A stretch of 14,469 nucleotides of DNA, from the IMG/VR virus record IMGVR_UViG_2740892028_000014. One strand, 5' to 3'. Of the stretch, positions 3,990 through 14,469 are shown one piece after another. Within the stretch, counting starts at the first letter, position 1; the number at the start of each line of letters is the position of its first letter. A program made the position numbers and the translations under genes. This DNA comes from a virus (Duplodnaviria > Heunggongvirae > Uroviricota > Caudoviricetes). The notes under the pieces are model-generated. The model did not search any database, was not told the DNA's origin, and worked only from the letters and a program-made list of their open reading frames with translations.

Positions 3990-6341
3990 ATGCGAAACAT
4001 TGATCTTATCCGTCAGGTTATCAGTGCGTCTGAAAACAACTGGCCTCATGTGCTGGGCTGCCTGAACATAAATGTCCCTGACTCTCCGCGCCGTCATGCT
4101 CCCTGCCCTGCATGTGGGGGCAAAGATCGATTCCGGTTCGACGACAACGGGCGCGGTAGCTTCATCTGTAATCAGTGCGGCGCTGGTGATGGGCTGGATT
4201 TAATTAAACGCGTAAATAACTGCGACACAACAGAGGCGGCGCTGCTTGCCGCTGATGTTCTGGGTATTGATTACCGGACAACGGAAACACCAGAAGCCAC
4301 CAGCCAGAAACGGGAACAACTGGAAACCGAGCGCCAGCGACGCGAACAGGAGCGCCTGAAAAGGGCAGAGAAGGACGAACAACAAAGACGGGATACGTTT
4401 TCCCGTCAGTTTGATGACATGCGCAGAAAGGCTGTAAACGGCAAATCTGATTATCTGGTTGCGAAAGGGGTAGGTGATTTTACATTCCCCGTGTTGCCCG
4501 ATGGATCTCTGTTGCTGGCGCTGGTGGATAAATCCGGCGCAGTCACAGCAGCACAGACTATTACCTCACATGGTGAAAAAAGACTCCTGACAGGTTCGGC
4601 AAAGCAGGGGGCATATCACGCCATAAACGCACAGAAACGACCTCACAGCATCATAATTGCTGAGGGGGTGGCTACCGCCCTGTCGTGCCATTTAATTCGC
4701 CCTGACGCAATGACAGTGGCAGCAATCGACGCTGGCAACCTGTTGCCAGTAGCGGAAGTCATGTGCAGAACATATCCACAGGCACAAATCATCATTGCCG
4801 CAGATAACGATCACCAGCAAGGAAACTCCGAAAGTGGAGGGATCAACACGGGGAAAGATGCCGCAGAGAGGGCCGCTATTTCCGTAGCTGGCTGGGTGTC
4901 TCTGCCACCGACTGACTATAAAGCCGACTGGAACGACTATCACCAACAACACGGGCTGGCGGCAGCCACAGCAGCATTTAAAGATTCGATGTACCAGCCA
5001 CGGGGGAAAGGGGCGCAGGTGAAAAATCACAAACAGCCAGTCGGGGCGCTGAATGAGATCAGTTCTGGCGAGGTGTTAAGCGATGATGAAATTGCTGTCC
5101 TCGAAGAAATCAACCGGACGTTTACGCATGTCACCATTGGCGGGAAACACAAGGTGGTGTCGCTAAAGCCTTCTCAAACCGGCGGTGTATCGCACGTTTT
5201 CGAGGATTTATCACAATTTCAGCATTATTTTCATCATAAACCGAGAGTCGCCAGAAAGCTGGCGGGATCGGCGTGGCTGTCATGGAGTGGGAAGAACTAC
5301 AAGCCAGGAGGCGTAGGATTTTATCCAGTACCAGACAAATGCCCTGACGATGTTTTTAATCTGTATGAGGGGCTGGCACTGGAACCAATTGAAGGAGATT
5401 GCACGGTATACCTTAATCACCTGTTGCAGGTTGTCTGTGCCGGTAATGAAGAGGCATACCAATATCTTATCCAGTGGATGGCGCACATTATCCAAAAGCC
5501 TGATGAAAAACCGTCCGTGGCAATCGTGATGAAATCTGTCCCGGGCACAGGGAAAGGCACAACGGTTAAACCGCTGCTGCAAATACTGGGGCAGTACGCC
5601 GCCCACATTAACGGGGCGGGACATATTTCAGGGCGCTTCAATTCAATACTTGCTAACAAGCTACTGGTATTTGCTGACGAAGTGACGATCCACAAGCCGT
5701 CTGAAGCTGACAGACTTAAAGCGATTATTAGCGAACCGACGTTTAACCTTGAGCGCAAGGGAATTGATGCTGAACCAATGCCGAATTTTGCCCGGTTGAT
5801 ATTTGCCAGTAACAGCACACAGGTATTACAGGCAGGGATAAGAGAGCGCCGCTATCTCGTGCTTGAGCCATCTCCTGAAAAAGCACAGAGCCGGGAGTAT
5901 TTTGATCGGCTGTACAGTTGGCTTAATGATGGCGGTGCCGCAAAGTTGCTTTGGCATCTTAAAGGGGTGGATCTCTCAGGTTTTGACCCTCAACGAGCGC
6001 CACAGACCGATGCCTTACGTGAAGAAATCTTGCTGGGGCTGTCTGGCGTTGAATTGTTTCTTTATGGCGAGCTAATCAATGAACCTCCGTTTAATGGCGA
6101 AGTCCGTTTGTTTGCAAAGGATATGGTTAGTCGATTTGTAGCGTGGTCGCTTGAGCGTGGGGAAAAGCTTAAAGAGCCAGCAGCCAGATCACTACTGGGT
6201 AAATCACTTGCACAAATGGGGCTGGTGAAGCATGGAAGACCAGACCGAGGGAATGGCGTGTTCTACGAACTACCAGAGGTCGGAGTTCTACAGGCTGCGT
6301 TTGCCCGTCTGATCGGTATGGGGGGTTATGATGTTTTTTAA
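3990..6341 (+). CDS. DNA primase-helicase, P4 alpha / D5-like: zinc ribbon + Toprim primase + P-loop NTPase
   Basis: ORF track 3990..6341, 783 aa. Zinc-ribbon motif CPACGGKDRFRF...FICNQCG near the N-terminus. Toprim-like acidic motifs IIIAEGVATA and IIIAADNDHQQ. Walker A VMKSVPGTGKGT and Walker B LLVFADEV in the C-terminal half. ACGGGGG upstream of the ATG. Confidence 0.9.
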   Translation: MRNIDLIRQVISASENNWPHVLGCLNINVPDSPRRHAPCPACGGKDRFRFDDNGRGSFICNQCGAGDGLDLIKRVNNCDTTEAALLAADVLGIDYRTTETPEATSQKREQLETERQRREQERLKRAEKDEQQRRDTFSRQFDDMRRKAVNGKSDYLVAKGVGDFTFPVLPDGSLLLALVDKSGAVTAAQTITSHGEKRLLTGSAKQGAYHAINAQKRPHSIIIAEGVATALSCHLIRPDAMTVAAIDAGNLLPVAEVMCRTYPQAQIIIAADNDHQQGNSESGGINTGKDAAERAAISVAGWVSLPPTDYKADWNDYHQQHGLAAATAAFKDSMYQPRGKGAQVKNHKQPVGALNEISSGEVLSDDEIAVLEEINRTFTHVTIGGKHKVVSLKPSQTGGVSHVFEDLSQFQHYFHHKPRVARKLAGSAWLSWSGKNYKPGGVGFYPVPDKCPDDVFNLYEGLALEPIEGDCTVYLNHLLQVVCAGNEEAYQYLIQWMAHIIQKPDEKPSVAIVMKSVPGTGKGTTVKPLLQILGQYAAHINGAGHISGRFNSILANKLLVFADEVTIHKPSEADRLKAIISEPTFNLERKGIDAEPMPNFARLIFASNSTQVLQAGIRERRYLVLEPSPEKAQSREYFDRLYSWLNDGGAAKLLWHLKGVDLSGFDPQRAPQTDALREEILLGLSGVELFLYGELINEPPFNGEVRLFAKDMVSRFVAWSLERGEKLKEPAARSLLGKSLAQMGLVKHGRPDRGNGVFYELPEVGVLQAAFARLIGMGGYDVF

Positions 6342-6370
6342 TATAGTCTTTTTACAAGAAGATCGTTTTT

Positions 6371-6476
6371 ACCTGTACCACCTATACCACTTTGCTAATT
6401 CAGTATTAAAAACAGTGCGTTATAGTGGTACAGGTCAATATCTTACCTATACCAGACCTGTACCACCTATACCATT
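6371..6476. repeat. iteron array I (putative replication origin): ACCTGTACCACCTATACCA units, both orientations
   Basis: Near-identical 19-20 bp units at 6371-6390 and 6457-6475, inverted copy TGGTACAGGTC at 6426-6436, AT-rich spacer between. Lies just downstream of the primase gene. Confidence 0.6.
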
Positions 6477-6517
6477 AACAAACGCATTTCTTCTGGCTGG
6501 CTGAGAGGAAACAACCA

Positions 6518-6748
6518 ATGATGAGCACACCATTTTACAAAGTGCGCCAGTTAGCTTCTTCCTCTGGCTGGCAGCTACGGTTTGAGGGGCGTTCAGACTG
6601 GCTACCCATTGCGGCATGGGCGAATGTTGAAATGTGTATTGACGGCGATACCGTTGAAATCATTATTCCCTGCGTGGCAAGTCGGGACGGCTGTATAGAG
6701 CCAACAGATATGGCAGCAGAAATCAGAGAGGTAAAACATGAACAATAA
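6518..6748 (+). CDS. hypothetical protein, 76 aa
   Basis: ORF track 6518..6748. GAGGAAA upstream of the ATG. 11-nt overlap with the next gene. Confidence 0.5.
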   Translation: MMSTPFYKVRQLASSSGWQLRFEGRSDWLPIAAWANVEMCIDGDTVEIIIPCVASRDGCIEPTDMAAEIREVKHEQ

Positions 6749-7475
6749 CTATTGCATACCGCAGGGAATGACCAGAACGGAGCGCGAAGAATTAAAAAGT
6801 TTCGCTACACAGTGCGGGAATGCTGGCGACATCCAAAGTCTGGAACGCACTTTAATTATGATTGCGCACTGGATGCGCCAGGGGCAAAGGGTTTCATTTA
6901 CTGAATATGCCAGCCAGTGGACAGAGGCACAGCGCGAACGGAGCGACGGTAATCACTCAACACCCGAAATGGCGAAGCAATGGCCTTTCAGTGGTAAAAG
7001 CTGTATCAGTCCCGGTGGTTCAGATTATTACCCTGCAGGTGTGGGAGATAAGCCATGTTGTGACGAGACTGAAATCCGCCACGCAGTGACAGTAATTACC
7101 GCTGAATACCCACAATTTAACCTTGACGGACTGGCGCTCCACAACCGGAATGCGGACTGGGAAAACCCGCTTGATAACCCGTCATTTATCGTATCGGCGA
7201 AAAGCTGCCTGAGATGGATCAGAGACAACGGGATGAGTAATGCCCAGATTGAGAGCTTCCCGCAGGATAACCCCACATCTGACATGTTGAAGCATGAAGT
7301 GGAGCGATATAACCAGATAAACCACCAGCACAGTGATCACCCGCACTATATCCCCAACGGAGCATTTATTGCGGCGATGGTGGCAAGCGGCTACAAGGTT
7401 AAGCCAGCGGGAAGAATGAACGCATTTTTCAATATTTCAAAAAAGGGATTATGTGCTGCTATGGGTAAAAATTAA
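6738..7475 (+). CDS. hypothetical protein, 245 aa, Cys/His-containing (CCDE, HQHSDHPHY)
   Basis: ORF track 6738..7475. AGAGAGG upstream of the ATG. No recognisable catalytic motif. Confidence 0.55.
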   Translation: MNNNYCIPQGMTRTEREELKSFATQCGNAGDIQSLERTLIMIAHWMRQGQRVSFTEYASQWTEAQRERSDGNHSTPEMAKQWPFSGKSCISPGGSDYYPAGVGDKPCCDETEIRHAVTVITAEYPQFNLDGLALHNRNADWENPLDNPSFIVSAKSCLRWIRDNGMSNAQIESFPQDNPTSDMLKHEVERYNQINHQHSDHPHYIPNGAFIAAMVASGYKVKPAGRMNAFFNISKKGLCAAMGKN

Positions 7476-7480
7476 ATAAA

Positions 7481-7585
7481 TGGTACAGGTCTGTACAGGT
7501 GGGGAGAGGTCATTTTTACCCACCTGTACCACCTGCAGGCCTCGCCACACAAGGGTTTGTGACATGGTGGTACAGGTGGTACAGC
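7481..7585. repeat. iteron array II: GGTACAGGT/ACCTGTACC units related to array I
   Basis: GGTACAGGT at 7482-7490, CTGTACAGGTGG at 7491-7502, inverted CACCTGTACCACCTG at 7521-7535, GGTGGTACAGGTGGTACAG at 7567-7584. Same core as 6371-6476. Confidence 0.6.
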
Positions 7586-7738
7586 AAAAACAGCGATTTT
7601 CTTTATAAGGTATGTTTTGCTCATCTGGCAGACGGAGGTATTCGCTGCGGTTTGGCACATAGCCCAGAACAGCAAAGAGTTTTACGAGACTTTTGTAAAA
7701 TCCAGTGTACAAGGGGCGTGACGTTTTTGAAGGTGAGC

Positions 7739-8078: not shown

Positions 8079-8252
8079 ATGGCTATTTCAGTAAAGCCAG
8101 TATTGATAAGTGAGAAGCAAATGGAAGCGATAAAGAAAATTCAGGAGGAGCAGCGTAAAAAATCAGAGGTAGGAGTTGCGCCAACGATCCACGAAATTGC
8201 TCGGGGATTAATGGATAAGGCGCTGGCTTACACTTTAACTGGACGTGGGTAA
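8079..8252 (+). CDS. small protein, 57 aa, possible ribbon-helix-helix-like regulator
   Basis: Below the track length cut-off; read directly: ATG at 8079, AAGGGGG 5-11 nt upstream, stop TAA 8250-8252. Protein MAISVKPVLISEKQMEAIKKIQEEQRKKSEVGVAPTIHEIARGLMDKALAYTLTGRG has a strand-helix-helix layout. Fold call is inference. Confidence 0.5.
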   Translation: MAISVKPVLISEKQMEAIKKIQEEQRKKSEVGVAPTIHEIARGLMDKALAYTLTGRG

Positions 8253-8256
8253 ATCA

Positions 8257-9600
8257 ATGGCTACGTGGCAACAGGGTATTAATTCTGGTGGTTTTCTGGC
8301 TGGCATCGGTACGCAAAATGAGAATGCGCCAAAGGCAAGCGACATTAACGCAACGCTTGGTCTGATCCGCGAAAACAATGAACTGGCTCGATCAGGTGCA
8401 AATAACGTTGCTCTGACAGGTCTTCGAGGTCTGGCTGGAGTTGCTGATATTTATAAGCAGCAGCAACAGCAGGAGCGTAAAGCGGCATTCCAGAAAGGCT
8501 ATGCGGATGCTTATGCGTCCGGCGACAGAGAGAAGATGCGTAATCTGGTTACTGAATTTCCTGATGAGTTTGAGGAAGTCAGAAAGGGAATGGGGTATAT
8601 CGATGATGCCCAGAGGGATGATTTTGGCAATCTGGCGCTTAAAGCACAGGTGGCCTCATCGCTGGGCGCTGGCGCATTTGGTCGATTCATGATGGACAAT
8701 GAGAAGGAAATGCGCCGCCTTGGCGTTCCGCCAGAAGTCATCGCTGACATGCATTTTAACGACCCGCAGGGCTTCCAGCACTTTGCAGGTAATCTGGCAC
8801 TATTTTCTCTCGGTCATGAGAAGTACTTCGATATCAAAGATCGAATGGAAGGTCGTCGACTTGAGCAAGGGCGACTGGATGAAAGTATGCGTCAGGCTGA
8901 CATGGAGAACGCGAGAGGATGGGCAAATATCCAGAACGCTCAACTAGACAGGGCTCAGCGAGCACAAATTCACTCAGATGAGATGGGATTGAAGCTAATG
9001 GAGCTGGGGCAAAAAGGTAAGCCGTCAGCAGACTTAATTAAGGGATTAAATTCTGATATTACCAATTTTGGCAAAAATTATAACTCTGTCAGAGCGGCAG
9101 CAAACTCTCTGCAAGCCCTTAGCAAGGTAAATACTGGCGCTGCCCAACTTGGGATTATCTTCAACTACATGAAATCTCTTGACCCGCAGTCAGTCGTTCG
9201 TGAAGGCGAACAGGTTCAGGTAATGCGGTCTGATGGCATATGGGGACAAATCAAAGGATACATAGACCAGCTTAATGCTGGAAACGGCCTGTCGCAGGAG
9301 GCAAAGGATAACATTGTTAACGCCGCAAAAATCAACGCCAATGCTATGGGGCAGCAGTTTAACCAGCAGGTTGACGAATATCTCGATACATATGGAGAAA
9401 CCATTCCTCAGGGGCTAAGAAAAAGCCTTGAAAGAAGGAAAGCGAAGCTATTTGACGATGTTTCCGGGCAGCCTACATCACAGGCTGGCACTGGGCAGGC
9501 AAAAGCGGCAACCGGAGGAATATCAGAAGGCGCAACGGCAACCAACCCTAAAACTGGTCAGAAAATTATTTACAGGAACGGAAAATGGCAGCAAATGTAA
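8257..9600 (+). CDS. hypothetical Ala/Gln/Gly-rich protein, about 447 aa; no enzymatic motif seen
   Basis: ORF track 8245..9600 uses a GTG; the first ATG is at 8257 (MATWQQ...). The upstream small-gene stop overlaps this start region. Poly-Q run and predicted helical, low-complexity sequence. Last 16 nt overlap the next gene. Confidence 0.7.
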   Translation: MATWQQGINSGGFLAGIGTQNENAPKASDINATLGLIRENNELARSGANNVALTGLRGLAGVADIYKQQQQQERKAAFQKGYADAYASGDREKMRNLVTEFPDEFEEVRKGMGYIDDAQRDDFGNLALKAQVASSLGAGAFGRFMMDNEKEMRRLGVPPEVIADMHFNDPQGFQHFAGNLALFSLGHEKYFDIKDRMEGRRLEQGRLDESMRQADMENARGWANIQNAQLDRAQRAQIHSDEMGLKLMELGQKGKPSADLIKGLNSDITNFGKNYNSVRAAANSLQALSKVNTGAAQLGIIFNYMKSLDPQSVVREGEQVQVMRSDGIWGQIKGYIDQLNAGNGLSQEAKDNIVNAAKINANAMGQQFNQQVDEYLDTYGETIPQGLRKSLERRKAKLFDDVSGQPTSQAGTGQAKAATGGISEGATATNPKTGQKIIYRNGKWQQM

Positions 9601-11702
9601 TCTTACCGGAAGGTTTTGTGCTCGATGAACAACCTGATAACTCACAGTTTCCTGATAGTTCACAGCTTCCTGATGGTTTTGTGCTTGATGCCCAACCAGA
9701 ACAGCAGCAATCACCTTTGGTTTCACCATGGGAAAATTCCAGACAGGAAAATGTTGTTAATAATGCTAACGGTTTCGACCGTTTTATGTATGGCGTTCTC
9801 AGTGGATTGATGGATGTTGGTAAAGGTGTTGGCCTGTTTCAGGATATGACACCAGAAGAGCAAGCCGCAATTCAGTCTCTACAGCAGAAGTTAGCGGCAA
9901 AACCATCAACCGCACAAGATGTTGGTGAGTTTGTTGGACAAGCAGCGCCATTTGTTAGTGGTGGTGGGATTATTTCTCAGGTTCCGAAAGGTGCGGCAAG
10001 GCTGGCTGCCGCCGCAGGGCTTGGTGCTGGAGAAGGGGCTATTGTAGCCAATGGAACAAATAGCGATGTTGCTTCCGGCGCTGCTATTGGCGCTGTGGCT
10101 GGCCCTGTAGCCGAACTTGCTGGCCCTGCAATTAATAAAATAGCTGGGAAATTAACCAAGAAGAATGTTTCTTCGATTCCAGATATTGAGGGGATTACTC
10201 CTGCCGAAGAGAAAATTCGTAAGTTATCTGCACAAGGCAACCCAAATCTTGCCTCTTCGCTTGAAGGGCTAGATCTAAAACCTCAGAAAGAAATTGTTGA
10301 GGCTGCAAATAGGCTTCATGTTGATTCAGTTCTTCCTTCTCATTTTTCAGGAAATGAGCAATACCAAGCTGTAGAGCAAGCCCTAAAGTCACGGACAGGA
10401 TCAGCGTTAAAAGCTCAAGAAGATAAAGCAATAAGCGAATTAGCCTCTAGTGCTGGCAAGATAATCGATGATGTTGCTGGTGCGCCAGATGCGTTAGCTA
10501 TGAGCGAAAAATATATTTATCAGATAAATAGTAGAATGGAAGCACTAAAAAACCGTAGTGATCAGTTATATAAACGTGTTGATTCCGCTCTATCACCAAG
10601 AACAAAAGTCGAAGCAAATAACACAAGCACTATGCTGGAAAAAATCGCTGATGATTTAGGTGGGTGGGATAATCTTGACCCAATAGAAAAGCGAGTTTTT
10701 ACAGCAATAAACCCCGGCCCAGATAGCATCCTAACGTATGCAAATTTAAACAGGCAAAGGCGTTTAGTTGGTGATGCCCTAAATAAAAAGCAGGGGCCAT
10801 ACAAAGATGCTGATAAAGAAGCGCTATCAAGACTATATGGAGCTTTAGCTGAAGACCAAAAATCTGTCTTATCCAATACTGGATACTTGCGAGATTTCGA
10901 AGTCGCACAACGCCTTGTAGCTATGAGAAAAAACTTAGAAAGGCAAATGGTAAATCTTCGCGGGAAAACACTTAATGGGGATATAGCGTATAAAGTAACG
11001 AATTCTCTTCAATCTATGGCAAAAGGTGATGCGAGAGGGTTTCGTGAGATTATGCAAAATACTCCATCAAGAACATTGCGAAGGGAGCTAGTAGGAACAG
11101 CATTAAGAGATATGCTTTCCTCTGGGAAGCGCGGGGCCGACTTTAATCCATCTGGCTTTGCAGATTGGTGGCAAAACTTGCAACACAGTGGACAGCTAAA
11201 GACTTTGGCTGAACATTTGCCAAAAGAAACAATGAGCGGACTATATGATGTATACAAAGTTGCCAGAGCAATAAAAAATGCTAAAGCGCATGAAATATCT
11301 ACTGGTAAGCTGAATGAGTTTGTAAACAGATTTAATCGGGTAACAGCTCCATACGAACTAGCAGCAAAACACATTCAAAAAATAGGCACGATGATAGGCG
11401 CTCATTTTGGATCGCTTGGAGCCATTGCTGGGGCTGATATTGGAGCAAGATTGGCGAGTAAAGCTCGATTAGCTGGTGGAGCAGGGGCGGCTGATGCTGC
11501 GGATAAATTAATTGCCTCGCCAGCCTTCCAGAGCGCAGTAAAAAATCTACACGGAAAAGCGCCTGGGCACATTGTTGATTCACGTATCAGGCGCTCCCCT
11601 CAATGGAAGAGTTTTTTTAACTCTCTTCCTGAACAGGAAAAACGGACCATCGCCCGACTGGGCATCATTACTTGGCTATCTAATGATCCAGATAATGACT
11701 AG
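9585..11702 (+). CDS. hypothetical 705-aa protein with N-terminal tandem repeat and Gly/Ala-rich zipper-like segments
   Basis: ORF track 9585..11702. Tandem peptide repeat LPEGFVLDEQP / LPDGFVLDAQP, mirrored in the DNA at about 9600-9700. Gly/Ala stretches such as GAARLAAAAGLGAGEGAIV and GSLGAIAGADIGARLA. No Walker or nuclease motifs seen. Confidence 0.75.
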   Translation: MAANVILPEGFVLDEQPDNSQFPDSSQLPDGFVLDAQPEQQQSPLVSPWENSRQENVVNNANGFDRFMYGVLSGLMDVGKGVGLFQDMTPEEQAAIQSLQQKLAAKPSTAQDVGEFVGQAAPFVSGGGIISQVPKGAARLAAAAGLGAGEGAIVANGTNSDVASGAAIGAVAGPVAELAGPAINKIAGKLTKKNVSSIPDIEGITPAEEKIRKLSAQGNPNLASSLEGLDLKPQKEIVEAANRLHVDSVLPSHFSGNEQYQAVEQALKSRTGSALKAQEDKAISELASSAGKIIDDVAGAPDALAMSEKYIYQINSRMEALKNRSDQLYKRVDSALSPRTKVEANNTSTMLEKIADDLGGWDNLDPIEKRVFTAINPGPDSILTYANLNRQRRLVGDALNKKQGPYKDADKEALSRLYGALAEDQKSVLSNTGYLRDFEVAQRLVAMRKNLERQMVNLRGKTLNGDIAYKVTNSLQSMAKGDARGFREIMQNTPSRTLRRELVGTALRDMLSSGKRGADFNPSGFADWWQNLQHSGQLKTLAEHLPKETMSGLYDVYKVARAIKNAKAHEISTGKLNEFVNRFNRVTAPYELAAKHIQKIGTMIGAHFGSLGAIAGADIGARLASKARLAGGAGAADAADKLIASPAFQSAVKNLHGKAPGHIVDSRIRRSPQWKSFFNSLPEQEKRTIARLGIITWLSNDPDND

Positions 11703-11721: not shown

Positions 11722-12078
11722 TCAATCTTTATTCTTTGAAATAGAGTCATTGATCTTTTCGAAACACCAATGAAATCCACAAAAGAGAGCTACACCAATA
11801 TAACAATACAAAACTATCAACCACCTTTCAGTGTCCGAAGGGTAAAAAACATCAATTACATAAGCAACACCAATTGGTATTAATGCTAGTAATAACATCG
11901 ACATAGGACGTACAAACTTCTGAACTATATCAATTTTATAGAACCACAAGGCGGTATGTTTAATGATATAAGTAAAGATGGCTGCGCCAATAATGGCAAA
12001 AAACACCATCGATAAGGTCGGGTATAACTTTGCGACAATTAAACCCAACAAAATAATTATAACTGCCTGCCCCCTCAC
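11722..12078 (-). CDS. small integral membrane protein, 118 aa, about 3 predicted TM helices
   Basis: ORF track 11722..12078 (-). GTG start with AAGGGGG 5 nt upstream on the minus strand. Hydrophobic segments IIILLGLIVAKL, VFFAIIGAAIFTYII, LLLALIPIGVAYVI. AT-rich codon usage. Confidence 0.55.
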   Translation of the reverse strand: MRGQAVIIILLGLIVAKLYPTLSMVFFAIIGAAIFTYIIKHTALWFYKIDIVQKFVRPMSMLLLALIPIGVAYVIDVFYPSDTERWLIVLYCYIGVALFCGFHWCFEKINDSISKNKD

Positions 12079-12191
12079 ACCAACCCCCTTTAGCGTTGTT
12101 TAGAATGGCAATCATCATATATCCAAGACATGGCATTTGGTACATAGCTTGGGTCGGGATTTCAAATCCGATCCCCGTTGATGGGGCCGTT

Positions 12192-12573
12192 ACAGTACGC
12201 GCATATCCGCTTTATGTGAAACAGGAAGATTTTTCTGATATCACTGCCACAGCAAAACACCAATTTCGTGACCAGTACGCGCGCGAGGGGTATCAGTTGC
12301 AAAATTTTTTGCAACTGCGTCCGACCAGTACGCGCACGATGGAGGGGAGTGCCATAAAACTGTTCTCTACATAAGACAGAGTGGTGGTGATGTGTTGATT
12401 ATCGGCGTATATGCGCACAGGACGCGCTATGACGATGTTTTATGCGGGTACACCAATCACATGTATCTGATGTGATAAATCGTGTTACATGACATATCAT
12501 GTTGTGCTGGTGGTTATCACGACTTTCTGAATCTGGCCTTTGCCTGATATTTTGCGACAAGTACGCGCGCGTA
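12192..12573. repeat. family of short repeats with an alternating CG core (consensus roughly ACCAGTACGCGCGCG)
   Basis: Copies at 12192-12203, 12271-12287, 12324-12339 and 12557-12573, with a fifth at 14232-14247. Longer shared context CAATTTC..GA.CA.TACGCGCGCG at 12261-12287 and 14219-14246. Confidence 0.5.
12294..12317. promoter_or_regulatory. 24-bp palindrome CAGTTGCAAAA-TT-TTTTGCAACTG
   Basis: Perfect 11-bp inverted arms with a 2-bp spacer, between two copies of the CG-core repeat. Confidence 0.4.
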
Positions 12574-12599
12574 GCATCGACAGCATACACATTGGATAT

Positions 12600-12821
12600 T
12601 CATTTTGTGACCAATGCGATAAGTAGCGGGATAAGAATTGATAAAATCAACAGGCCGATGATCCACTTTTGATTTTCACTGGCCTTATCTCTATTTTCAT
12701 CAATCTTATCAATAATTCGACGCTCCAAGCCGTGCATATCACCGCGAATGGCAATCATCTCATTGCGAACATCCGAGAAGTGGTTGGCTTGATGTTCAAT
12801 GTGTGGCGTTCTGCCTTTCAT
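12600..12821 (-). CDS. small membrane protein, 73 aa: soluble N-terminal helix plus single C-terminal TM (XhlA/holin-like architecture)
   Basis: ORF track 12600..12821 (-). ATG start with GTGAGGA upstream on the minus strand. C-terminal WIIGLLILSILIPLLIALVTK is a clear TM segment. Family resemblance recalled, not searched. Confidence 0.55.
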   Translation of the reverse strand: MKGRTPHIEHQANHFSDVRNEMIAIRGDMHGLERRIIDKIDENRDKASENQKWIIGLLILSILIPLLIALVTK

Positions 12822-12900
12822 GCCTGATCCTCACCTATCGTCACCACCTGCTGGTGTATAAAGGTATTGGCCCAAGCAGCTTTCCAATGGGCACTCATGT

Positions 12901-13356
12901 TTATACGCTGACCTTACAATCAATCACCGCTTTTAACTTTTCAGCATTGCTTCCCTGGCGCTTCCACGCGCTGTAAATGTCTTTATCCCATGCTTTACCA
13001 GCTTTTGTTTGATAGCCTGCTTCATTGAGCCGTTCCGCTATCACACGCCCATTATCAAATCCCTGTCGGATGGTATCGGCAATGATCTTTATAACTGCCG
13101 TTTCGTTATATGGCTTTGGTGGGATGTTCGGCTTTCCGGCAATAAGCGACGCAGCGGCTTTTTCCATGCGCTCCACCAGCCCAAGCATTCGTGAATCAAT
13201 AGACTTTTCCGGCTGTCCCAGCTTCATGCGAATCGCATCAACAAGCCAGGAGGTTTTATCCCCTCCAGAAGCGAGAACAGACCGATTAAACTCATCCTGC
13301 AATTCAGATGGGATGCGGAACGCGACCAGATTAGATTTGCTCATTGCAAAGACCAT
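12901..13356 (-). CDS. DNA-binding protein, 151 aa: N-terminal ribbon-helix-helix-like segment plus C-terminal recombinase-type HTH-like segment
   Basis: ORF track 12901..13356 (-). N-terminus SKSNLVAFRIPSELQDEFNRSVLASGGDKTSWLVDAIRMKLG looks RHH-like. C-terminus IAERLNEAGYQTKAGKAWDKDIYSAWKRQ resembles the DNA-binding segment of serine-recombinase accessory domains. Both are motif-level calls. Confidence 0.55.
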   Translation of the reverse strand: MVFAMSKSNLVAFRIPSELQDEFNRSVLASGGDKTSWLVDAIRMKLGQPEKSIDSRMLGLVERMEKAAASLIAGKPNIPPKPYNETAVIKIIADTIRQGFDNGRVIAERLNEAGYQTKAGKAWDKDIYSAWKRQGSNAEKLKAVIDCKVSV

Positions 13357-13374
13357 ATCAGTGAGTAATATCCA

Positions 13375-13404
13375 TACAGTATACCACTGTATAACACTGT
13401 TATA
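13375..13404. promoter_or_regulatory. overlapping operator-like inverted repeats: TACAGT-N5-ACTGTA and TATAAC-N3-GTTATA
   Basis: Read directly at 13375-13391 and 13390-13404, about 20-50 bp upstream of the 12901..13356 start on the minus strand. Confidence 0.35.
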
Positions 13405-13458
13405 CGCTCAAATATCAGCCAGAAAATAACGGGCCAATCACAAAGCTATCGCTGTGTT

Positions 13459-13579
13459 GTTGGTTCAGAGCTGGGCTGTGTTGGTTCAAAATGAGTTGAT
13501 GTTGGTTCAATATTTCAGAAAAAACACAATAAAAACAACGATCTTTACAAATTGAACCAACTGAACCAACTGAACCAAC
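13459..13579. repeat. iteron array: three GTTGGTTCA copies phased 21 bp apart plus a perfect tandem triple of the inverse TGAACCAAC
   Basis: GTTGGTTCA at 13459-13467, 13480-13488, 13501-13509. TGAACCAAC x3 contiguous at 13553-13579. Lies in the divergent region between 12901..13356 (-) and 13616..13903 (+). Confidence 0.65.
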
Positions 13580-13615
13580 ACCTTTTTGCTTATCTATATA
13601 ATCTGAGAGGCAGAA

Positions 13616-13903
13616 ATGATAAGGGACAGGAAAGCTGAAGAGCTGGAGTCAAAAGGGCTATACCGGAGAGCTGCCGCACGATGGGCAGAAGTCATGATGC
13701 TGGCAGATGGCGATAAAGAACGTGAACATGCAGCAAACAGACGCTCTGAATGTATCCGTAAGGCGGCACGCCCACCAGCAACTACAGACAGATTCGGAGA
13801 TTTAAGACAGGCAGTTAAGCGGACTCATTCGGCTCTTGGTATGGATGAGGAAGCGAGAGGGTACTTCAGGCGTTATCGCGATAAAGATTGCCAGAGACAG
13901 TAA
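13616..13903 (+). CDS. PerC-family transcriptional regulator-like protein, 95 aa
   Basis: ORF track 13616..13903. N-terminus AEELESKGLYRRAAARWAEVM matches the PerC-type signature as I recall it. TATAAT at 13597-13602 just upstream; GAGAGG before the ATG. Confidence 0.65.
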   Translation: MIRDRKAEELESKGLYRRAAARWAEVMMLADGDKEREHAANRRSECIRKAARPPATTDRFGDLRQAVKRTHSALGMDEEARGYFRRYRDKDCQRQ

Positions 13904-14019
13904 TGCTCTCTCTGTTTTGGCAAATTACCCCTCACTTTGAAGGGATCGGAGCTATAAAAATGGTTTTAGGTACATTCCTCAAATTGAGGATTGTGGGAAA
14001 ACCAATGAGTTAGGCTTTT

Positions 14020-14037
14020 CCCCCAATGGGGGTTTTC
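14020..14037 (+). terminator. rho-independent terminator-like hairpin CCCCC-AAT-GGGGG + TTTT
   Basis: GC stem followed by a T-run about 120 bp downstream of the 13616..13903 stop. An alternative pairing with upstream GGGAAAA is possible. Confidence 0.4.
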
Positions 14038-14148
14038 GAAAGAATCAATGGGTTAGTCCATCGTGCAAATTTGCACCCTGCCAGCCAACGCAATTTCTCG
14101 TTGGCGAAAATATCAGGTATTTACTGAACGAACGGTCTACCAGTCTGT

Positions 14149-14469
14149 TCAGTTACCAGTTGCATATGGCTGTTTCATGTGAGAACGGAGGTTTTTTCGG
14201 ACATCACTATTGGGTACAGCAATTTCACGAGCAATACGCGCGCGCAGGACAACAAGCCTGAACATGGTTACACACCTCGATCGTGAGGGATGTAGGCAAT
14301 GGCTTCTGACCAAAGCACCCGAAAAAACCGTGTACATAAGGGTGTACATAATCAAAAATCGCATTAGGAAGAAACCAGCTACAATGCGGCATTGAAGCCA
14401 ATACTCTACAAACAGATTCAAAGCGACATATCTCCGTAGGCCGTTGTTAATTACAGCGGCGCTACGCAT
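14149..14469 (-). CDS. hypothetical protein, 106 aa, hydrophobic core; gene status doubtful
   Basis: ORF track 14149..14469 (-). Its ATG is the last three bases of the window, just as the window begins on the alpA ATG, so it may be annotated in the source. Sequence is Arg/Cys-rich and looks atypical. Confidence 0.3.
   Translation of the reverse strand: MRSAAVINNGLRRYVALNLFVEYWLQCRIVAGFFLMRFLIMYTLMYTVFSGALVRSHCLHPSRSRCVTMFRLVVLRARIAREIAVPNSDVRKNLRSHMKQPYATGN

Follow-up and report, generated by a model that had tools for sequence, protein, structure and literature searches.

The repeat array at positions 13459-13579 of the window, as we call the whole 14,469-nucleotide stretch of viral DNA analysed here, is probably an orphan origin module of the DUF927 type, of the kind found in phage-inducible chromosomal islands (PICIs), and not an operator for the RHH-like regulator encoded beside it. 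This assignment comes from comparing sequences across related islands. In this island the helicase-origin cassette was replaced by a DUF5906 type with other iterons, so that the module, built of the 9-mer GTTGGTTCA, would be left behind as an orphan second origin. Its cognate initiator was probably lost when the island swapped its replication enzyme. The original prediction had put a cooperative binding array first and named a second replicon-like origin as the fallback; it is the fallback that proved essentially right, on the comparative evidence of arrays lying immediately after DUF927-type replication genes.

The window covers most of an integrative island of ~17 kb that adjoins yicG/ligB or dinD in E. 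coli. Its genes include an integrase, an HTH regulator, AntA/B and Ash homologues, a fused primase-helicase and homologues of P22-type ejection proteins, followed by a small distal module that encodes the 147-aa regulator and PerC. This gene set and its one-directional layout match those of Gram-negative PICIs, and PerC alleles are carried by some E. coli PICIs (PMC6092414). The features discussed below are collected in Table 1.

Two further observations concern the island as a whole. The homologues of P22 ejection/injection proteins (PF16928 Inj_translocase; ORFs of 451 and 705 aa) occupy 8245-11702 in the window and 9988-14646 in the E. coli sister island L001, a part of the island that has an origin copy on either side in sister islands; our search found no paper on P22-type ejection proteins in a PICI-like island. 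Near the right end of the island, the exact direct repeat GTGTACATAA occurs twice, 12 bp apart, at 14330-14351, and might be an arm-type site for an integrase or excisionase.

Table 1. Positions of the features considered in this work, in window coordinates except for the last row, which gives coordinates in related loci.
Feature	Position	Strand	Basis
Resident primase-helicase (Zn-ribbon, Toprim, DUF5906)	3990-6341	+	domain hits
Resident candidate origin, CCTRTACCA iterons in two sets around an AT-rich stretch	6372-6474	+	immediately 3' of resident rep
Second cluster of resident CCTGTACCA iterons (CCTRTACCA)	7481-7585	.	1.1 kb from first cluster
RHH-like regulator gene, 147 aa from conserved Met	12901-13344 (ORF to 13356, 151 aa)	-	homologues, RefSeq start
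Predicted operator of the RHH-like protein, three tandem 10-mers, + strand ACAGTATACC / ACTGTATAAC / ACTGTTATAC	13376-13405	-	comparative
Left iteron set, 3x GTTGGTTCA	13459-13467, 13480-13488, 13501-13509	+	exact search
AT-rich spacer, candidate DNA-unwinding region	13510-13552	.	composition; conserved AAAACAA...TCTTTACAAAT in 47 copies
Right iteron set, TGAACCAAC x3 read on + strand	13553-13561, 13562-13570, 13571-13579	-	exact search
Putative -10 hexamer TATAAT of outward promoter into perC	13597-13602	+	sequence reading; conserved -10-like TATA element
perC-family gene, 95 aa	13616-13903	+	PF06069, E = 2.6e-33
GGTACGCA/TGCGTACC motif sites	L011 9389-9416, L012 14134-14174, L019 12388-12428, L025 9625-9666, L032 10877-10904, L049 9781-9916, L050 2017-2083, L023 ~9887-9930		

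Anatomy and conservation of the array

The published layout of a PICI origin consists of two iteron sets that flank an AT-rich region immediately 3' of rep, and the function of such a rep-ori unit has been shown with EcCICFT073 (PMC6092414). The window array has the first part of this layout, with three spaced and three contiguous inverted 9-mers around 43 bp of 79% AT. As had been described before, three copies phased at 21 bp are followed by an inverted contiguous triple, and the exact search placed both sets where they had been seen. The left copies of GTTGGTTCA start 21 bp apart, which is about two helical turns, and the right copies abut one another with a 9-bp period in the opposite orientation. 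These six are the only exact GTTGGTTCA/TGAACCAAC 9-mers in the 14,469-bp window. Because one given 9-mer is expected by chance ~0.11 times on both strands (2 x 14,461 / 4^9), six exact copies within 121 bp are far beyond chance. Matches to GTTGGTTCA with one mismatch occur five times outside the array, which is a background level (11 in total in the window search vs 3.7 expected).

The spacer between the two sets is markedly richer in AT than the window as a whole (79% vs 53%), and it ends in the motif TCTTTACAAAT. In what follows, the rep-proximal copy of this module in related islands is called unit A, and the window-type, inverted copy is called unit B. The TCTTTACAAAT end of the spacer is conserved among 47 distinct unit B copies that we compared. 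By analogy with the published PICI origin layout (PMC6092414), the spacer would be the site at which the DNA melts. Across these 47 homologous copies, drawn from many genera, both the 9-mers and the 21-bp phasing persist whereas the sequence of the intervening 12-bp spacers varies freely, so the repeats are under selection. The number of right-set copies ranges from two to four in relatives, with four in L087.

In two respects the window copy departs from the PICI layout. It lies between the RHH-like gene and perC, 7.1 kb from the rep stop codon (6341), instead of immediately 3' of an initiator gene, and its iteron does not match the initiator of its own island, a DUF5906 protein accompanied by CCTRTACCA iterons.

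On the perC side, the putative promoter points outward from the array. Its TATAAT starts 17 nt past the last iteron, close to the roughly 20 bp estimated originally. A good -35 hexamer is absent, and the -35 position coincides with the last iteron. Among the 47 unit B copies, a -10-like TATA element ~17 nt beyond the last iteron is retained regardless of the gene that comes next, which may be perC, a 111-aa gene heading the capsid operon of a Klebsiella element, or another gene. A consensus promoter and terminator scan of 13250-13700 returned no full sigma-70 match and no terminator, so promoter assignments here rest on the -10 elements and their conservation; that of perC is a candidate promoter read from its -10 hexamer. 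Since the last iteron fills the -35 position, the presence of a foreign DUF927 initiator would presumably alter perC transcription and also start replication at this site.

DUF927-type initiators and the exchanged replication cassette

Homologues of the array lie directly beside replication genes in other islands. The E. coli sister island L001 matches the window at 94-98% identity except in the replicon cassette and in the ejection-protein genes, which have diverged, and the C-terminal half of its primase is DUF927 where the window has DUF5906. A six-iteron module is located 26 nt past the stop codon of this DUF927 rep (L001 9251-9361). It is an inverted homologue of the window array, with 77.7% identity over 121 bp, and runs in the order of three contiguous GTTGGTTCA, an AT-rich stretch and three spaced TGAACCAAC. 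L001 also holds a window-type copy between its RHH gene and perC. In the Klebsiella element L002, whose DUF927 helicase part is 71% identical to that of L001, 11 exact iterons follow the DUF927 gene directly and a capsid/protease operon comes next.

The association between iteron and initiator extends to a set of loci that is unbiased for the iteron, being chosen through the RHH protein. Among these RHH-selected loci, all full DUF927 helicase homologues at least 61% identical to that of L001 have arrays within 330 bp downstream, and the iterons in those arrays are GTTGGTTCA or variants that differ by 1-2 nt (TGAACCGAC in L009 and L049, TGAGACAAC in L050). Loci with DUF927-linked GTTGGTTCA-type arrays are L006, L007, L008, L027, L028, L029, L032 and L033, as well as Salmonella L172-176 and Klebsiella L179, islands that were retrieved via other RHH homologues and show the same behaviour. 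DUF927 homologues at 54% identity have AGTGTGTCA iterons (L025/L039), and those at 45% identity have TGGGATAAC iterons (L020/L038/L043). Sliding-window identity among the DUF927 proteins whose iterons differ by 1-2 nt (L009, L049, L050) revealed no discrete specificity segment. The iteron is also found at the 3' end of a DUF927 gene in ~60 IMG/VR loci, a set selected by the iteron itself and hence ascertainment-biased. Modules directly 3' of DUF927-type genes occur in E. coli, Salmonella, Klebsiella, Serratia, Pantoea and others, and the copies that sit immediately 3' of their initiator gene include L001 9251-9361 and those of L002, L006-8, L027-33 and L172. By sequence, the DUF927 protein matches a solved 'Pathogenicity island protein' (8TCH) and a helicase (5DGK).

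Related islands commonly hold two copies of the module. Units A and B are adjacent and form one large composite in L002, L008, L027, L032, L033, L179 and many IMG/VR contigs. A separation of 2-11 kb in inverted orientation, with unit B just upstream of the RHH gene, is seen in L001, L004, L006, L007, L019, L028, L029, L031, L034 and Salmonella L172-176, and this separated layout recurs in E. coli, Salmonella, Serratia, Cedecea, Rosenbergiella, Pantoea and Chimaeribacter. The same iteron appears in two separated clusters both in DUF927-type islands (GTTGGTTCA in L001, L006, L007, L028, L029, L031 and L172) and in the window, where that iteron is CCTRTACCA; GTTGGTTCA forms one cluster only in the window. 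Because the iterons, their phasing, TCTTTACAAAT and the TATA element are all kept in 47 copies, unit B is a conserved and selected part of the DUF927 replicon with an outward promoter.

The exchange that separated the window from this arrangement can be mapped. The resident and L001 primase-helicases are 85% identical over their N-terminal 345 aa, while their C-terminal halves are unrelated. Window positions 5012-7675 stand in place of L001 7476-9407, and homology resumes on both sides. The boundaries of the cassette are sharp and lie inside the primase-helicase gene. The swapped segment of the window holds the DUF5906 helicase half, the origin that follows it, two small genes and the second iteron cluster. 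A DUF5906 homologue from Xenorhabdus (L024) has CTGTACCA arrays alongside it, related to the resident array, and no GTTGGTTCA. As a separate observation, the two resident CCTRTACCA clusters bracket ORFs of 76 and 245 aa and together resemble an ori/crr pair.

Several loci carry the module, or arrays like it, in other settings. Pantoea L011 (9721-12223) has a tandem duplication of unit B plus the RHH gene, with a five-iteron unit B ahead of each of the two identical RHH genes, and no rep gene within 10 kb of it on the chromosome. In L010, L016, L018, L022 and L030, all that is left, as a remnant among housekeeping genes, is unit B together with the RHH gene. A partly decayed unit B with degenerate contiguous iterons is present in L179 (9341-9443; also L004, L005 and L177; Klebsiella and Raoultella), where it lies just ahead of an alpA-type gene and beside an apparent integrase gene fragment, with the RHH gene ~550 bp away, an arrangement that suggests tandem island remnants. 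Between the RHH gene and rep of L027 (10543-12500), GGTTCGCA, GTCCCATA and GTTGGTTCA arrays stand in a row. L020 (4955-5050) has a CTGTACCA array, the DUF5906-rep type, despite a DUF927-like rep with GGGATAAC iterons, and in L015 (9646-9745) an origin-like GGGATAAC module lies 250 bp upstream of the RHH gene. In L021, a stretch of 5.7 kb contains four arrays. It may be common for such islands to have orphan or heterologous origins. A different motif, GGTACGCA...TGCGTACC-N4-TGCGTACC, is found in many islands with any rep type (Table 1); it is probably the site of another regulator because it has no AT-rich core.

The Klebsiella element L002 is part of the record PQ569648.1, Klebsiella phage P12620-1, at ~96.9-105 kb of 106.5 kb. 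This region contains the DUF927 rep, a composite 11-iteron origin and an HK97-type capsid and protease, and it looks like a capsid-forming island; its proteins share 99-100% identity with those of numerous 17-28 kb IMG/VR contigs. Either a chimeric assembly or an integrated satellite may account for the record. A search of a phage collection with the array gave this 'phage' as its sole hit. We had considered the array as a mimic of a helper-phage operator, an idea that we dropped given that the P12620-1 region resembles a capsid-forming island rather than helper-phage DNA.

The RHH-like regulator and its predicted operator

On the other side of the array, the divergent 151-aa ORF that had been noted is indeed present (12901-13356, - strand). 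Translation most likely starts at its second Met (13344), as in homologues and in the RefSeq annotation, which gives 147 aa. The N-terminus of the protein has a strand-helix-helix pattern, and its C-terminal helical domain is very conserved. One database source labels a homologue 'Arc-like DNA binding domain protein', and hhalign against Arc gave a weak match (E = 0.008, probability 5%), though in the expected register. An AF2 monomer has helices at residues 17-29 and 34-45 after an unstructured strand region, and a pLDDT of ~90 at residues 80-147. The 147-aa protein had no Pfam hit, with only a sub-threshold recombinase-like HTH in its C-terminal part; profile and sequence searches of the PDB returned nothing relevant, and Foldseek with the AF2 model returned no hit with E < 2. 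Given the weak hhalign match and the empty Pfam and PDB searches, we speak of a putative RHH fold. The C-terminal domain (window 12901-13140, residues ~80-147) is near-invariant in Enterobacterales (DNGRIIAERLNEAGYQTKAGKAWDKDIYSAWKRQ), and its resemblance to PF20552 is sub-threshold (E = 0.04).

This protein has a predicted operator of its own that is separate from the GTTGGTTCA array. We gathered 48 loci via the RHH protein, one genome per species, and read the 125 bp upstream of each gene; the statistics on operator and array cover 44 loci. All intact RHH genes have tandem 10-bp repeats 35-65 bp before the ATG that enter the extended -10. In the window, these repeats at 13376-13405 overlap the extended -10 of the RHH gene (TGgTATACT on the - strand, + coordinates 13378-13386). 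The operator takes two forms. Proteins with an N-L-V/I-A-F strand motif go with the TGTATAAC/TGTTATAC type, ...TGTATAACAnTGTTATACAgTGgTATACT (23/24 loci), and those with an L-S-V-T-F strand motif go with the TGTCTTAC/TGTCTTAC type, ...TGTCTTACAcTGTCTTACAgTGgTAAAAT (20/20 loci). Operator type thus tracks the N-terminal strand motif in 43 of the 44 loci, the sole exception being a decayed gene (Fisher p = 1e-11, a value without correction for phylogeny). The switch between the NLV/IAF and LSVTF forms amounts to a clean natural specificity swap in an uncharacterised family of RHH-like regulators.

Readings of the array and comparison with known systems

In the original prediction, the 151-aa RHH-like protein, perhaps together with PerC, bound the repeats cooperatively and regulated transcription in both directions. 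Short repeats in tandem, direct or inverted, are indeed targets of RHH proteins such as omega, Arc and Mnt; the array does lie between two divergent genes; and in 14 of the 44 loci it occurs no more than 300 bp upstream of the RHH gene. However, it is absent from that position in the other 30 and is found with both strand-motif classes of the protein. What co-varies with the motif is another tandem repeat, the one over the -10 of the RHH gene itself, a pattern to be expected of a protein that recognises the 10-bp repeats instead of the array. In L008, L027, L032 and L033, moreover, the arrays adjoin rep and are 2-7 kb from the RHH gene. Control of both transcripts is also at odds with the geometry of the window, where the RHH -10 at 13378-13383 and the first iteron at 13459 put the array ~50 bp beyond the RHH promoter region and its overlap with promoters is limited to the perC -35 region. 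A role as a PerC-specific site fares no better, for the array also fronts genes other than perC, and the same iterons occur with PerC alleles only 54% identical and with unrelated downstream genes such as the Klebsiella 111-aa gene. We regard the RHH-operator model as very improbable. An RHH-like protein next to an array of short repeats also recalls type Ib and type II partition loci, in which case the array would be a plasmid-type centromere bound by an RHH protein of the ParG or ParR type. A partition NTPase gene is absent within 1.7 kb on either side, there is no ORF >151 aa in 11722-14469, and the ORFs tested have no ParA or ParM domain. The RHH operator is a different sequence, and the array is linked to rep genes and not to the RHH gene, which leaves a centromere with next to no likelihood. 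The readings as a PerC-binding site and as a partition centromere were both rejected on distribution and gene content.

Could the array instead work within the present replicon, as a crr-like second cis site for a host factor or for the resident DUF5906 initiator? Alpha proteins of the P4 type use iteron clusters at two separate places, ori and crr, and the domains of the resident protein come in the same order as those of P4 alpha. Yet two clusters of a different iteron, CCTRTACCA, already accompany the resident rep, the L024 homologue of DUF5906 type is accompanied by CTGTACCA arrays and not by GTTGGTTCA, and the C-terminal halves of the DUF5906 and DUF927 initiators are unrelated. We give this reading little probability. 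A further alternative is that the orphan copy has been selected for a function in trans, either being replicated by a co-resident or incoming DUF927 initiator or titrating that initiator against a competing satellite, as in iteron plasmid incompatibility. The mismatched combination of a DUF5906 rep with six intact GTTGGTTCA iterons is found in at least 68 complete genomes among the 5,426 of E. coli in the set, with 80% or more of the window present in 68. Comparison of window-type sequences showed intact iterons, with the few SNPs confined to the spacers or flanks of unit B. Related islands often number several per E. coli genome, in up to six places, and DUF927-type islands with GTTGGTTCA are about as frequent (367 genomes). 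Arrays that mismatch the nearby rep are also seen in L020 and L027. Against this, when island type and DUF927 rep were compared among the matches listed, at least 18 of the 40 listed window-type genomes had no second related island, and the window-type genome NZ_OZ547212.1 had no DUF927 rep detectable by megablast. Because window-type islands are ~98% identical, selection and recent common ancestry are inseparable here. The mismatched arrangement may persist because it has a role that does not depend on the cognate Rep, or only because it arose recently, and we consider selection for a trans function unlikely, if less so than the readings above.

Under the orphan-origin reading that we prefer, the GTTGGTTCA replicon would belong to DUF927-family primase-helicase initiators, relatives of the Rep of staphylococcal pathogenicity islands. 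By analogy with known origins, such an initiator would bind the iterons, melt the AT-rich stretch and load itself as a helicase. In cognate islands, unit B may serve as a second initiation or pairing site, much like P4 crr, with units A and B acting jointly. In the lineage of the window, the helicase/origin-recognition half of rep and the adjacent origin were exchanged for the DUF5906 cassette, which left unit B without its cognate initiator. The resident initiator would presumably not fire unit B, and any remaining cis role would mainly be that of an upstream region and promoter for perC. The orphan unit would then fire, or perC transcription change, only when another island supplies a DUF927-type initiator in trans. 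Within this reading, we find it about evenly balanced whether the module is inert in this island or has been retained for action in trans.

A broader proposal is that satellites keep origin modules matching the initiators of other satellites, so as to be amplified by a competitor's initiator or to titrate it, that the perC promoter reports a foreign initiator, and that the two-copy inverted origin of DUF927-type islands is the ancestral functional form. We offer it as a speculation with a small chance of being correct. If the orphan origin does respond to foreign initiators, co-resident satellites could influence or compete with one another through it, and perC, a homologue of a virulence regulator, would be linked to this cross-talk; if it does not, it would be a datable scar of module exchange. 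A conspicuous repeat array is re-assigned from gene regulation to replication, and the neighbouring regulator gains a precise predicted operator. Many widespread enterobacterial satellite islands carry two inverted origin copies that sometimes bracket the whole accessory region. These islands exchange a helicase-plus-origin cassette as one unit, and they appear able to retain the origin of a lost initiator afterwards.

Full-text literature searches for the iteron strings returned unrelated primer sequences only. In the literature searched, which included P4 crr and cf-PICI origins, we found no description of a second, displaced origin copy, and no report of this iteron, of helicase-origin exchange as one unit, of a mismatched origin with a perC promoter, or of a regular second inverted origin copy able to bracket an accessory region. 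A PICI origin is an already known kind of element, and the iteron, the second inverted copy, the one-unit exchange and the mismatched retention are what that literature did not contain.

The closest relatives of the module are PICI origins, namely the EcCICFT073 pri-rep-ori and the SaPI ori. The likeness lies in the homologous copies immediately 3' of a fused primase-initiator gene, and the window element, too, is a PICI-like island able to carry PerC (PMC6092414). In contrast, rep and the window copy are 7 kb apart, the orientation of this copy is opposite to that of the rep-proximal copy in sister islands, and its iteron mismatches the resident origin. The operators of RHH proteins (Arc, Mnt, omega, CopG) offer a likeness to the predicted operator at 13376-13405, with its tandem 10-bp repeats over the gene's own -10 and a specificity that tracks the strand, whereas the GTTGGTTCA array behaves otherwise. 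Auxiliary iteron loci of plasmids, such as P1 incA and F incC, are extra initiator sites outside the minimal origin that act in copy number or incompatibility. The window unit shares with them the presence of extra initiator-site copies outside a minimal origin, but has its own AT-rich core and an outward promoter. In the work of Flensburg and Calendar from 1987 and of Ziegelin et al. from 1993, the alpha protein of P4 is said to be a fusion of primase, helicase and origin-binding functions whose iteron forms two clusters separated by several kb and occurs in both direct and inverted orientation. The units A and B of DUF927-type islands, 2-11 kb apart, and the two CCTRTACCA clusters of the window replicon both resemble this arrangement. 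The iteron sequence is different, and the helicase family that goes with GTTGGTTCA is DUF927 and not the DUF5906 type. Furthermore, each island unit is a full module of iterons, AT-rich stretch and iterons, and the second site in the window is orphaned. With these differences, P4 ori and crr offer the closest functional analogy for unit B.
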